Positions 24,807 through 59,787 of a stretch of 64,000 bases of DNA are shown here, piece after piece. Under the pieces are notes generated by a model. That model ran no database searches. It saw nothing but the letters and a program-made list of their open reading frames with translations, and was not told the DNA's origin. The DNA is from an uncultured virus (IMG/VR IMGVR_UViG_3300008107_000208) (taxonomy: Duplodnaviria > Heunggongvirae > Uroviricota > Caudoviricetes), in IMG/VR virus record IMGVR_UViG_3300008107_000208, positions 1 to 64,000 of that record; one strand, 5' to 3'. How positions within the stretch are numbered: position 1 is the stretch's first letter; the number at the start of each line of letters is the position of its first letter. The position numbers were made by a program, and so were the translations under genes.

Positions 24807-25067
24807 ATGGGAAAGGGTATCAATATTATTCACATAAATTGTGATCCTTCTTTTGCTGACGATAAGAGTCTTCCAAGAGATTCTTATCTAGTATCTTATG
24901 GTGATAATGATGAAGAAAAGTTTGATGTAGTTCAAGGTCTTCGCTCTGATATCTTTGACCACTATTGGGATAAGTATCGTGATGTAAGACGAATGGATTG
25001 GACTCAAGGTACAGTCAATCCAAAGTCATGGGGTTATAATGTGCCTGAAAAGAAAAAGCGAAAGTAG
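24807..25067 (+). CDS. Hypothetical cyanophage protein
   Basis: ORF track; IFD.YWDKY, G.VNPK.W. Confidence 0.75.
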   Translation: MGKGINIIHINCDPSFADDKSLPRDSYLVSYGDNDEEKFDVVQGLRSDIFDHYWDKYRDVRRMDWTQGTVNPKSWGYNVPEKKKRK

Positions 25068-25162
25068 TTTCCAATATCGCTAATAATTTTTCCGGCAAAA
25101 TTTTCTTGCGTGAGGGTTTTCACAAATCTTCACGCTTTTTAGTATAATATAGATACCATTTA

Positions 25163-25176
25163 GTATCTTATGTTAC
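25163..25176. promoter_or_regulatory. Candidate NtcA box
   Basis: GTA-TCTTATGT-TAC is an exact GTA-N8-TAC upstream of a nitrogen-linked cluster. Confidence 0.45.
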
Positions 25177-25232
25177 TGTTTTCACACATATAAGACCTAT
25201 ATAGGATGAATAGGGGTATAATAATCCCCTAA

Positions 25233-25485
25233 CGTTCATCCTATGACTAAAGCACTTTTGCTTTTAGCATGGGTTCCACTTCTTTCTGTTTCAACGCCAC
25301 GACTTATACAGAATCCATATCCTGTGACTATAAGTTGTGACGCAGCGTGGGAACTAATGGACATCGTTAAAAACGACGATGTAGTAGACCAAAGAAGAGA
25401 AGACCGATTGCTATTAGAACTCCGAAAGGATGTTGTTCAAAGGTGCTAAAAACTGAATAGGACGCAAGTAAGCCGACTCGGAACG
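25233..25485 (+). ncRNA. Glutamine riboswitch-like aptamer 1 (glnA/Downstream-peptide family) with ORF in P2 loop
   Basis: CGTTCA-TCCTAT...ATAGGA-CGCAAGTAAGCCGACTC-GGAACG; TATAAT at 25217-25222. Confidence 0.7.
25243..25449 (+). CDS. 68-aa two-Cys protein nested in aptamer 1
   Basis: ORF track; hydrophobic N-terminus; similar to 25498-25653. Confidence 0.65.
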   Translation: MTKALLLLAWVPLLSVSTPRLIQNPYPVTISCDAAWELMDIVKNDDVVDQRREDRLLLELRKDVVQRC

Positions 25486-25488
25486 GAT

Positions 25489-25660
25489 CGTTCATCTATG
25501 GAGCAACTCTTTTTATCTTGCTTACAGGCACAACTTCTCATTAGTAGAGTTAATGCTAGTAACTTCGTCACTGACCATGAAAAAATTGGTCTCATATTAG
25601 AAATTGAACAAGTCACAAAGAAAGGTTGTTTCATAGACGCAAAAGCCGACTGAAGGAACG
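25489..25660 (+). ncRNA. Glutamine riboswitch-like aptamer 2 with ORF in P2 loop
   Basis: CGTTCA-TCTATG...CATAGA-CGCAAAAGCCGACTGAAGGAACG directly upstream of a YRG-motif peptide gene. Confidence 0.78.
25498..25653 (+). CDS. 51-aa two-Cys protein nested in aptamer 2 (MEQLFLSCLQAQLL...KGCFIDAKAD)
   Basis: Hand-translated open frame; stop lies in the aptamer core. Confidence 0.6.
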   Translation: MEQLFLSCLQAQLLISRVNASNFVTDHEKIGLILEIEQVTKKGCFIDAKAD

Positions 25661-25694
25661 GGACTAACCATCTCATTTCTTTAGGAGAAAACCA

Positions 25695-25832
25695 ATGTCG
25701 AAAGTAGTTTATCGTGGTGCTGAATACGATACCGAAAAGCGTATCGCATATCAACAACAGATGATGCAACAACCCCAACAATACAACGAAACCTATCGTG
25801 GTGTTAAGTATGTAAAGGAGGGGCACAAATGA
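25695..25832 (+). CDS. DUF4278-like YRG peptide (45 aa)
   Basis: VVYRGAEY and TYRGVKY motifs; AGGAG RBS; expected gene downstream of glutamine aptamers. Confidence 0.8.
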   Translation: MSKVVYRGAEYDTEKRIAYQQQMMQQPQQYNETYRGVKYVKEGHK

Positions 25833-25927
25833 AGAAACTAAACTTCTTGCAAATCATTAAAGAGCAAAAACAAAAAGAAGAGCGTCGTCATCAAGCCCAA
25901 CTAGCACAATTAGTAGGAGCAAGGTAA
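25829..25927 (+). CDS. 32-aa basic helical peptide (MKKLNFLQIIKEQKQKEERRHQAQLAQLVGAR)
   Basis: AGGAGG RBS; ATGA overlap with upstream stop. Confidence 0.65.
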   Translation: MKKLNFLQIIKEQKQKEERRHQAQLAQLVGAR

Positions 25928-26013
25928 TGGTACAGTTCATGGTATCAACTACTGCTGCGATTGCTTTAACAACCGTATTTTTATCAATGTATGTTCAGTG
26001 GTTGGACAAATAA
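25927..26013 (+). CDS. 28-aa hydrophobic peptide
   Basis: TAATG coupling at both ends; AGGAG RBS. Confidence 0.55.
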   Translation: MVQFMVSTTAAIALTTVFLSMYVQWLDK

Positions 26014-26168
26014 TGGACAACTACAAATATCATTATGATGATATGGATAAGGACAATAGACCTCCTGCTTGCTATCAACTAACATACAGGGGTTGTAATT
26101 ATTGGTCCTGTTATACTATTCATCTAGATGAGTGGTTTGAAAAAATGTTTAAGTTTGAGGGAGATTGA
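26013..26168 (+). CDS. 51-aa peptide with LTYRG motif and three Cys
   Basis: TAATG coupling; CYQLTYRGCNYWSC. Confidence 0.65.
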   Translation: MDNYKYHYDDMDKDNRPPACYQLTYRGCNYWSCYTIHLDEWFEKMFKFEGD

Positions 26169-26184
26169 CTCTCCCTCTTTTTTT
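26157..26184 (+). terminator. Terminator closing the micro-ORF operon
   Basis: GAGGGAGA/TCTCCCTC stem plus T run. Confidence 0.8.
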
Positions 26185-59634: not shown

Positions 59635-59708
59635 GCAGGTTTAGCAATCTGGTAGAATGCTCAGAACTCATAATTCTGCGAAGGCGAGTTCGATCCTCGC
59701 AACCTGCA
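59635..59708 (+). tRNA. tRNA with CAU anticodon (elongator Met or Ile2)
   Basis: GCAGGTT/AACCTGC, CAGAA-CTCATAA-TTCTG, GCGAG-TTCGATC-CTCGC. Confidence 0.88.
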
Positions 59709-59713
59709 CCTAC

Positions 59714-59787
59714 GCCCGCATAATCCAACAGGCAGAGATAGGGAGCTTAAAACTCCTCCAGTGTCGGTTCGAATCCGACTGTGGGTA
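59714..59787 (+). tRNA. tRNA-Leu(UAA), short variable loop
   Basis: GCCCGCA/TGTGGGT, GGGAG-CTTAAAA-CTCCT, GTCGG-TTCGAAT-CCGAC. Confidence 0.85.

Follow-up and report, generated by a model that had tools for sequence, protein, structure and literature searches.

In a stretch of 64,000 nucleotides (nt; hereafter the window) taken from the 77-kb record of a T4-like cyanomyovirus (IMG/VR IMGVR_UViG_3300008107_000208), two consecutive copies of the strands of a glutamine riboswitch each hold a complete small-protein gene in the loop of their P2 hairpin. The locus appears to be the leader of a small cyanophage operon with a glutamine-I-type (glnA-type) riboswitch, for which glutamine binding is predicted. 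It is strongly supported that both nested open reading frames (ORFs) encode proteins under purifying selection, and equally that the inserts have left the conserved strands of the aptamer, its junctions and the base pairs of P2 in place. The fuller reading, in which the two units make up one interlocked glutamine-I-type double aptamer, each P2 hairpin holding an entire small-protein gene under selection, and in which translation is coupled to sensing, seems to us about evenly poised between right and wrong.

Results

Two riboswitch units closed around genes

The locus is a small unit bounded by two terminator-like hairpins (25108-25135 and 26157-26177), and it opens with the two copies of the glutamine-riboswitch strands (Table 1). 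At the base of P2 in unit 1, TCCTAT (25239-25244) pairs with ATAGGA (25457-25462) over 6 bp, and an extra helix of 10 bp with one G-U pair joins 25251-25260 to 25438-25447; P2 of unit 2 is a 14-bp helix with three G-U pairs (25495-25508 with 25624-25637). Both P2 closures are present in the unconstrained minimum-energy fold of 25229-25700. The GGAACG of unit 1 (25480-25485) is followed by the linker GAT (25486-25488), so that the units stand 3 nt apart, and the GGAACG of unit 2 lies at 25655-25660. The ATG of gene 1 is partly inside the P2 5′ strand and that of gene 2 is within P2. In gene 2 the stretch CGCAAAAGCCGAC is translated as …DAKAD, ahead of the TGA stop (25651-25653) in GACTGAAGG; both this C-terminal DAKAD and the stop codon are encoded by the aptamer core. 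The two units, their P2 helices and the enclosed ORFs had been set out in an earlier note on this DNA, every coordinate of which proved correct to the base.

Table 1. Features of the leader and its surroundings, as positions in the 64,000-nt window
Feature	Position	Strand	Remarks
Terminator-like hairpin	25108..25135	+	End of upstream gene block
Sigma-70-like promoter match	25119..25148	+	TTCACA, 18 nt, TATAAT; 11/12; consensus match only
NtcA-box-like GTA-N8-TAC	25163..25176	+	70 nt ahead of CGTTCA
ATAGGATGAA	25203..25212	+	Exact complement of 25235-25244 (TTCATCCTAT)
Hairpin GGGG-TATAATAAT-CCCC	25213..25229	+	Loop with -10-like TATAAT at 25217-25222
Unit 1	25233..25485	+	CGTTCA…GGAACG
P1 5′ strand of unit 1	25233..25237	+	CGUUC; outer P1 5′ strand in the interlocked model
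CGTTCA of unit 1	25233..25238	+	
P2 of unit 1	25239..25462	+	Insert of 224 nt
Nested gene 1	25243..25449	+	ORF of 68 amino acids (aa), family A2
Core of unit 1	25463..25485	+	CGCAAGTAAGCCGACTCGGAACG
Junction J1	25463..25471	+	CGCAAGUAA; linchpin base N1 = C25465
P3 5′ strand	25472..25478	+	GCCGACU; partner 25644-25650
Unit-1 3′ strand, linker, unit-2 5′ strand	25480..25494	+	GGAACG-GAU-CGUUCA
Unit 2	25489..25660	+	CGTTCA…GGAACG
CGTTCA of unit 2	25489..25494	+	
P2 of unit 2	25495..25637	+	Insert of 143 nt
Nested gene 2	25498..25653	+	ORF of 51 aa, family A1, phrog_504
Core of unit 2	25638..25660	+	CGCAAAAGCCGACTGAAGGAACG
Junction J2	25638..25643	+	CGCAAA; linchpin base N2 = C25640
P3 3′ strand	25644..25650	+	AGCCGAC
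UGAAG junction and P1 3′ strand	25651..25661	+	With stop of nested gene 2; P1 3′ strand GAACG 25656-25660; G25661 partner of C25465
UUUCUUUAG and Shine-Dalgarno	25676..25687	+	UUUCUUUAG (25676-25684) can pair with CUGAAGGAA (25650-25658); overlaps Shine-Dalgarno AGGAG 25683-25687
Downstream gene	25695..25832	+	45 aa, YRG repeats, Gln-rich, DUF4278-like
Three more small ORFs	25829..26168	+	25829-25927, 25927-26013, 26013-26168
Intrinsic-terminator-like hairpin	26157..26177	+	With T run; closes the unit

Loop states among relatives

A pattern for the between-unit junction matched at least 120 viral-contig loci; this and later counts of relatives are among the matches listed, which comprise 114 unique loci (108 classifiable and 6 cut by the locus end). 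P2-loop lengths were bimodal, being either 10-28 nt or 138-224 nt, and the loops of unit 1 and unit 2 were short and long in 47 unique loci, both short in 34, both long as in the window in 15, and long and short in 12. At least one nested gene was thus found in 74 of the 108 classifiable loci, and two in 15. Phage P-HM2 has genes in both loops, which have been annotated since deposition as the hypothetical proteins PHM2_179 and PHM2_180. The layout also explains a class of annotation artefacts, in which public gene calls (P0003, P0019 and P0056) stretch the nested gene upstream across the core, or treat the core TGA as a residue and so fuse the nested gene to the downstream one.

Variants of the layout were seen at several loci. 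Three CGTTCA…GGAACG units stand in a row at L082 (668-990), with a short loop, a gene-bearing loop and a short loop; the last two units have GTCA/TGAC in place of the GCCGAC P3 strands, and the first is without an obvious P3 partner. At L149 and L150 (about 560-640) a unit-1-type nested gene is followed by a core with a longer, self-contained P3-like hairpin (GTGGTATTACCAC) before GAAGGAACG, and each of these loci may have just one, canonical aptamer, with a gene nested in it. L271 can be viewed as a natural “sensor-less” variant. Mini-ORFs in the short loops were considered and rejected, an ATG being present in only 7/66 unit-1 and 0/33 unit-2 short loops. When a loose motif pattern was run over genome contigs, the matches listed were random and came from unrelated bacteria, with the fuller junction in one of them (L324).

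The nested ORFs as protein-coding genes

In every unique long loop (87/87) an ATG lies 9-13 nt from the C of CGTTCA and opens a loop-filling ORF of 49-69 aa. Stop codons summed over the 87 loops number 20 in frame 0, compared with 439 in frame +1, 538 in frame +2 and 217-340 in the reverse frames. Column entropy in the nested ORFs peaks at the third codon position, and the ratio of nonsynonymous to synonymous substitution rates (dN/dS) was 0.49, 0.23, 0.28 and 0.28 (0.28 for A2, the family of gene 1). The claim that each P2 loop encloses a genuine protein gene is borne out by this single open frame and by dN/dS values of 0.23-0.49. In 71/87 loops the stop codon is supplied by the core itself: unit-2 ORFs end at the core TGA in 56/58 cases and unit-1 ORFs at the TAA of CGCAAGTAAGCC in 15/29, and the remaining 14 unit-1 ORFs, including the window type, end 5-16 nt ahead of the core.

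Neither nested ATG in the window is preceded by GGAG, GAGG or AGGA, which agrees with the original description of nested starts in or at the edge of the P2 5′ strand that are without a Shine-Dalgarno sequence. Elsewhere, a Shine-Dalgarno sequence at -18 to -5 was found in 1/64 nested unit-2 ORFs vs. 109/110 downstream genes.

We made three protein alignments: A1 (unit-2 type, 55 sequences), A2 (the unit-1 type of the window, which begins MTKALLLLAWVPLLS…) and A3 (the other unit-1 type). Two cysteines are invariant in the nested families (C8 and C44 in A1). AlphaFold2 modeled the gene 2 product as a two-helix hairpin (H8-20 and H26-38) with a predicted local distance difference test score (pLDDT) of 86.7, and the gene 1 product (pLDDT 69.8) with helices H32-44 and H50-67 after an N-terminal hydrophobic helix; the latter protein has a signal-peptide-like N-terminus followed by a helical hairpin bounded by Cys32 and Cys68. 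The products agree with a description as Cys-Cys hairpin proteins, that is, proteins of 45-70 aa in which two conserved cysteines 35-45 residues apart flank a helical hairpin.

The product of gene 2 matched phrog_504 (E = 2.7e-4), and no PHROG or Pfam match was obtained for gene 1. The paralogy of the two window proteins, also proposed in the earlier note, is only weakly visible between these two proteins themselves (BLASTP E = 0.019), and family A2 links weakly to the others (hhalign 14% against A1, and 6%); what stands is a relationship between A1 and A3, the other unit-1 family, which hhalign aligned Cys to Cys (89%, E = 2e-6). A fold search of the gene 2 model against the PDB gave nothing at E ≤ 0.001, matches to it in the viral library BFVD were uncharacterised cyanophage proteins only, and the protein atlas returned viral hypothetical clusters only. 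At E ≤ 0.001 the A1 profile recognised 342 clusters (50% identity); almost all are 44-116 aa long, and some of the longer ones are gene-caller artefacts extended across the core or through the TGA. Two apparent relatives of A1 were rejected, namely P0088, whose sequence is that of a repeat protein, and P0001 (2888 aa, 21 matched stretches), whose match pattern suggests one.

When sampling started from the proteins, 77/80 loci of A2 lay between CGTTCA and the core, as did 62/80 loci of A3 by script and 15 more by reading of the translations; the N-terminal extensions …YVH/HVH… in A3 translations correspond to …CGTTCAT…. The exceptions were L194, L256 and L258, where the locus ends early, L149 and L150 with their P3-like hairpin core, and L271, where the core is replaced.

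Folding of the insert RNA and conservation of P2

The two inserts of the window fold better than their shuffled versions (unit 1: z = -4.49; unit 2: z = -2.76), and 0/200 shuffles fold as well. We extended the comparison to 29 unit-1 and 58 unit-2 inserts, with 70 coding segments from the window as controls. The median z was -4.4 for unit-1 inserts, -3.2 for unit-2 inserts and -0.6 for the controls, and the minimum-energy fold closed the ends of 23/29, 55/58 and 1/70 of them, respectively (inserts vs. controls, Mann-Whitney P = 7e-20). With 18 nt trimmed off each end the medians were still -2.9 (unit 1) and -2.2 (unit 2). It is therefore strongly supported that the nested coding RNAs are selected to fold back, bringing the P2 strands together, and because the coding RNA is shaped in this way we argue that the sensor is meant to assemble around the genes.

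P2 itself covaries. In the 58 unique long unit-2 loops, position 3 of P2 is CG in 31, TA in 22 and TG in 5; position 4 is AT in 21, CG in 19, TA in 11, TG in 6 and AA in 1; and position 5 is TA in 27, AT in 22, TG in 5, CG in 3 and TT in 1. Of the first six positions, a mean of 5.5 are paired, vs. 4.2 with partners shuffled among units. Compensatory changes at positions 3-5 occur in short and long loops alike, so the covariation around inserts for which the earlier note had called is present.

Identity of the aptamer

Short-loop homologues of the units were scored against the Rfam Glutamine model RF01739, whose gathering score is 35 bits: unit 1 of DSL-LC02 reached 35.6 bits, unit 2 of S-CREM1 33.5 and unit 2 of S-PM2 33.3, so that one of the three attained the gathering score. 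Outside P2, unit 2 of the window is letter-identical to the S-PM2 unit, and the S-CREM1 record labels its own copy as a glnA riboswitch. The variable hairpin in the structure line of RF01739 is exactly where the window holds its genes. Together with the PF14105 and phrog_5049 matches of the downstream product (see below), these scores support the claim of glnA-type glutamine-riboswitch elements ahead of a candidate DUF4278-like gene. Four weak Rfam matches in the window at E ≤ 10 (2dG-I, sR9, MIR6151 and freshwater-2) were dismissed as chance, the match to MIR6151 being a spurious product of the 25203/25235 inverted repeat.

The glutamine-I riboswitch, as far as it is set out in the excerpts used here (RF01739, Synechocystis gifB/IF17 leader; Klahn 2018, PMC6212724; Weinberg 2010, PMC2864571), shares with the window the P1 strands CGUUC/GAACG and an unpaired A followed by P2, the junctions CG(G/C)AAGUA and GAAG, a long-range G-C linchpin, and probably a small DUF4278-type gene downstream with a maskable Shine-Dalgarno sequence; tandem occurrence is also reported there. 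The P1 strands and the unpaired A are present twice in the window and are invariant in 30/30 aligned homologues. P2 follows directly after CGUUCA and is supported by covariation, but its loop is a protein gene of 143-224 nt instead of the few (~4) nucleotides of the model. A second difference concerns P3. In RF01739 this is a local hairpin flanked by CGGAAGUA and GAAG, but GCCGAC finds no partner within its own unit in the window and pairs instead with the GCCGAC stretch of the other unit; the function of P3 seems to be kept with a different topology. The linchpin, a pair between a base of the junction and the one that lies 3′ of P1 (Ren 2015, cited after an excerpt of Klahn 2018, PMC6212724), is likewise exchanged, being found between the units and not within them. 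Finally, the copy in the window, unlike the usual glutamine-I element, escapes the Rfam model. The glutamine-II riboswitch (Downstream-peptide motif, RF01704) of marine picocyanobacteria resembles the locus in its CGUUCA/GGAACG strands and in the similar small gene downstream, but it is a pseudoknotted, two-hairpin single aptamer without a nested gene, and the phage units score better on RF01739; the match of RF01704 to the S-PM2 homologue was weak (24.6 bits).

Probable contacts between the units

We assessed pairing between and within units in 30 distinct leaders that have short loops in both units. N1, the N of CG-N-AAG in unit 1, was paired with the base after the GGAACG of unit 2 in 30/30 leaders (CG 16, GC 14), and with the base after its own GGAACG in only 17/30. 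N2 was paired with the base after the GGAACG of unit 1 in 30/30, compared with 17/30 for the within-unit alternative. The base after the GCCGAC of unit 1 covaries with the base before the GCCGAC of unit 2 (GC 11, UA 11, AU 8), forming the closing pair of P3, and pairing of the GCCGAC stretches with each other is possible if two internal mismatches are allowed, of which one is replaced by A-U in six sequences; in L082, P3 is replaced by GUCA/UGAC. The same pattern was seen in the 76 unique loci with a nested gene, where N1 and the base after the GGAACG of unit 2 were Watson-Crick in 76/76 vs. 58/76 in cis, and the P3 closing pair was Watson-Crick in 74/76. In the interlocked model, the between-unit contacts in the window are G25486-C25640 and C25465-G25661.

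Covariation thus favours what is probably one interlocked double aptamer over two independent tandem aptamers; the earlier view of two self-contained tandem aptamers is probably in need of correction, as linchpin and P3 covary between units and not within them. It is strongly supported that the 5′ half of unit 1 (CGUUC, P2, CG-N-AAGUAA) works with the 3′ strand of unit 2. On the simplest reading, there would be an outer aptamer, with P1 formed by 25233-25237 and 25656-25660 and the shared P3 by 25472-25478 and 25644-25650, together with a permuted inner aptamer that has the hairpin 25481-25485/25489-25493 as its P1; each aptamer would have one P2 and one gene.

Downstream gene and possible expression platform

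The 45-aa product of the downstream gene, in which YRG motifs are visible, matched phrog_5049 (E = 8e-10) and, under the cut-off of 25.3 bits, PF14105 (E = 0.0014, 19.4 bits). A strong AGGAG precedes the gene, which starts at 25695; in the minimum-energy fold CUGAAGGAA is paired with UUUCUUUAG, which overlaps this Shine-Dalgarno sequence. Among relatives of the window class (75 loci), the Shine-Dalgarno region has CUGAAG or CUAAAG as its pairing partner, in a helix that averages 5.9 nt vs. 4.9 in the control; in the other class (31 loci) its partner is the tail CUCUUUA (7.0 vs. 4.8). The CUGAAGGAA/UUUCUUUAG pairing may be the expression platform. Such a platform fits the ON switch which, in the part of Klahn 2018 (PMC6212724) used here, is proposed for the DUF4278/IF17 gene gifB.

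The downstream peptide is Gln-rich in its middle (…QQQMMQQPQQ…), likewise in DSL-LC02. The three tiny ORFs that follow encode 32 aa (with a weak phrog_545 match), 28 hydrophobic aa, and 51 Cys-rich aa with a YRG motif. Two neighbouring tRNA genes were noted at 59635-59787 (52.6 and 48.1 bits).

Metatranscriptome contigs from four studies cover 25210-25545 and 25630-25923 with 88-100% identity, are silent on starts, strand and level, and may include DNA carry-over; none lay over 25042-25167 or 25924-26007. Apparent joints in contigs that skip 25496-25636 were rejected as splicing: they carry 20 other letters and come from short-hairpin relatives. Contigs in which a 20-nt short hairpin replaces the unit-2 gene (25495-25637) came from runs X1-X3, so both loop states co-occur in those samples.

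Upstream motifs

The promoter-like match and the GTA-N8-TAC motif, which we take to be the NtcA consensus, lie ahead of the leader (Table 1). Among relatives, 42/44 anchored unique upstream sequences have GTA-N8-TAC between -53 and -71 relative to CGTTCA, most often at -62 or -70, and its flanks diverge while the motif stays. Given the promoter-like match, the candidate box would sit just downstream of the transcription start, as in the NtcA-repressed gif genes. Nearer to unit 1, the complement of ATAGGATGAA at 25235-25244 takes in the P2 5′ strand, some of the P1 5′ strand and the first two letters of the gene 1 ATG; if transcribed, ATAGGATGAA could sequester the 5′ strands of P1 and P2 together with part of that ATG. 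This 25203/25235 inverted repeat is conserved only in part among relatives. The stem of the adjoining hairpin (25213-25229) covaries in relatives (GGGG/CCCC, GGAG/CTCC, GAGG/CCTC).

Discussion

Proposed competition between translation and sensing

We propose that translation of the nested genes and folding of the sensor compete on the same RNA. With the starts in the P2 5′ strands and the reading frames extending into the P2 3′ strands, a ribosome at work on the nested genes and a folded sensor would be mutually exclusive. A 30S subunit on either nested AUG would have to keep the adjoining P1 and P2 5′ strands single-stranded, and an elongating or terminating ribosome would open the P2 3′ strand and, for gene 2, also J2, P3 and UGAAG. 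The outer P1 strands are 420 nt apart, which would leave a long co-transcriptional period allowing translation only, and the nested genes would then be translated mainly during transcription, or while ribosomes hold the RNA open. When the last ribosome leaves, the insert would zip up, P2, P3 and P1 would close, and the start codons would be buried; glutamine would stabilise the fold, and CUGAAGGAA would then no longer pair with the Shine-Dalgarno sequence ahead of the DUF4278-like (IF17-like) gene. Overall, the nested genes would be expressed early or at low glutamine and the downstream gene at high glutamine.

A bolder version, which we offer tentatively and think somewhat doubtful, is that the double aptamer and its two nested genes are one kinetic device, in which translation holds the sensor open and a lapse in translation assembles the glutamine sensor. 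Co-transcriptional ribosomes would make the Cys-Cys hairpin proteins, the coding RNA would later zip into a rod that assembles the sensor, and the assembled sensor would lock the nested starts and give glutamine control of the IF17-like gene.

Several points count against an interlocked sensor coupled to translation. The layout is dispensable, since short and long loops are found in all four combinations; the loop state can differ between loci whose downstream sequences are 96-99% identical; and at L271 (380-760) the central core (J1 and GGAACG-linker-CGTTCA) is replaced with both nested genes kept back to back. Rfam searches of the window (at the gathering score and at E ≤ 10) and of the whole virus record gave zero Glutamine matches; such matches are not expected, because inserts of 143 and 224 nt sit in a model of 53 positions, and the result is therefore no evidence against the motif. 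The absence of a Shine-Dalgarno sequence is not unusual for the phage, as 12/68 crude ORFs of at least 100 aa have one, and the anti-Shine-Dalgarno signal in the window class is modest (5.9 vs. 4.9). A ribosome terminating at the TGA of gene 2 would sit on CUGAAG, the strand that can mask the Shine-Dalgarno sequence of the downstream gene, and would thereby unmask it, which would give coupling, the opposite of reciprocity, and weakens the reciprocal nitrogen switch suggested in the earlier note. The 14-bp P2 of unit 2 is stable without ligand, so burial of its start codon is possibly glutamine-independent. With regard to the fold, constrained energies do not separate the interlocked (-112.6 kcal/mol) from the tandem arrangement (-114.2; unconstrained minimum -123.2). 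The covariation of N1 with the base after unit 2 involves two states only, largely following two clades, and thus possibly few independent events; that of N2 with the base after unit 1 involves one double change. The between-unit P3 pairing would also fit two separate kissing aptamers. Glutamine binding, translation and the transcription start of the leader RNA are predictions made from sequence.

Alternative explanations

The inserts might be passive cargo, the P2 loops being tolerant sites and the genes cassettes that co-infecting cyanophages pass to one another when they recombine via the highly conserved arms of the aptamer; the sensor would still function, with no selected link between nested-gene translation and glutamine sensing. 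We regard this as possible, if on balance doubtful. The occurrence of all four loop states among the 108 classifiable loci (47/34/15/12) and of differing states at nearly identical downstream sequence would be expected of cargo, L271 indicates that the genes can outlive the central core, short P2 loops already range from 10 to 28 nt, and confinement to the aptamer context would equally be expected of a cassette whose only route of transfer is via the aptamer arms. A mere passenger, however, is not readily reconciled with an ATG that overlaps the P2 5′ strand in 87/87 loops with no spacer and no Shine-Dalgarno sequence, with reading frames that end at the core's own stop in 71/87, or with a coding RNA that is strongly selected to fold, interior included. 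Insert folding therefore points to adaptation to the hairpin; it proves coexistence with the sensor, though not a regulatory link.

Two independent, self-contained glutamine aptamers in tandem, with P1 within each unit, a gene in each and additive action on the downstream gene, seem improbable. The primary sequence does read as two complete units 3 nt apart, Rfam aligned each short-loop unit alone, the nearest-neighbour energy is slightly better, and both linchpin options are C-G in the window itself. Against this, each within-unit linchpin fails in 13/30 leaders where the between-unit ones are paired in 30/30, and neither unit has its own P3 partner, with J1 and J2 covarying instead (GC, UA, AU; GUCA/UGAC in L082).

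Very improbable, in our view, are regulatory leader peptides, in which the ORFs matter only for loading or stalling of ribosomes, as in attenuation, and the products are functionless. The ORFs are short, they lie in a leader, and their start and stop codons overlap regulatory helices, as such peptides would; but purifying selection acts on their amino acids (dN/dS 0.23-0.49), two cysteines are invariant, the helical-hairpin models are confident, no run of Gln codons is conserved across families, and a protein profile recognises 342 clusters (50% identity, E ≤ 0.001). Least credible and disfavoured is a decayed sensor, with relic motifs flanking ordinary small genes after the inserts broke the aptamers: the lack of an Rfam match in the window and the true loss of the core in L271 would fit, but the core motifs are intact, P2, P3 and linchpin pairs covary in insert-bearing loci, and the insert RNAs are selected to close on themselves.

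Comparison with other systems

The portions of the literature on phage glutamine riboswitches and tandem glnA RNAs that we drew on describe neither a gene in an aptamer nor an interlocked fold, in line with the earlier note, to whose author no description of the layout was known; the supplements of Weinberg 2010 may bear on variable-length P2 stems.

Some likenesses to other systems can be drawn. Group I introns of T4-type phages carry homing-endonuclease ORFs looped out of peripheral helices; as here, a functional RNA accommodates a gene in one of its tolerant loops, folding and translation interfere, and presence varies among related phages. Unlike those introns, the host RNA of the window is a ligand sensor in a 5′ leader and not a ribozyme, the inserts encode Cys-Cys hairpin proteins of 49-69 codons without a nuclease signature, and the ORFs begin and end within helices and junctions of the sensor itself. 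The tandem glycine riboswitch also has two ligand-binding units in one leader that contact each other, but in the cyanophage leader there is a gene in each unit, and the strands appear to be exchanged to give an outer P1, a permuted inner P1 and a shared P3. In the dual-function RNAs RNAIII/hld and SgrS/SgrT one transcript region serves as structured regulator and small-protein mRNA; these are trans-acting small RNAs whose coding and regulatory parts are largely separate, whereas in the cyanophage leader the codons themselves form the helices and junctions of the sensor.

Riboswitch aptamers are regarded as compact domains without coding function; scans with covariance models share this assumption and here miss the element completely. 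Because genes in sensor hairpins are common in cyanophages (74/108 among the matches listed), phage riboswitches are undercounted. An interlocked double-aptamer fold would be a second, separate point on riboswitch architecture. If the kinetic device is real, two sets of small effectors would be made from one leader according to host translation and nitrogen status, and the nested codons would be under triple selection for protein, insert fold and sensor core. The leader would be a naturally occurring case where translation and ligand sensing have to vie for the same nucleotides, and cultured pairs exist, e.g., P-HM2 and Prochlorococcus MED4. For the phages themselves, it would tie a large family of unstudied small Cys-Cys proteins to a nitrogen-status circuit copied from their hosts, that of the glutamine riboswitch and the IF17-like peptide.

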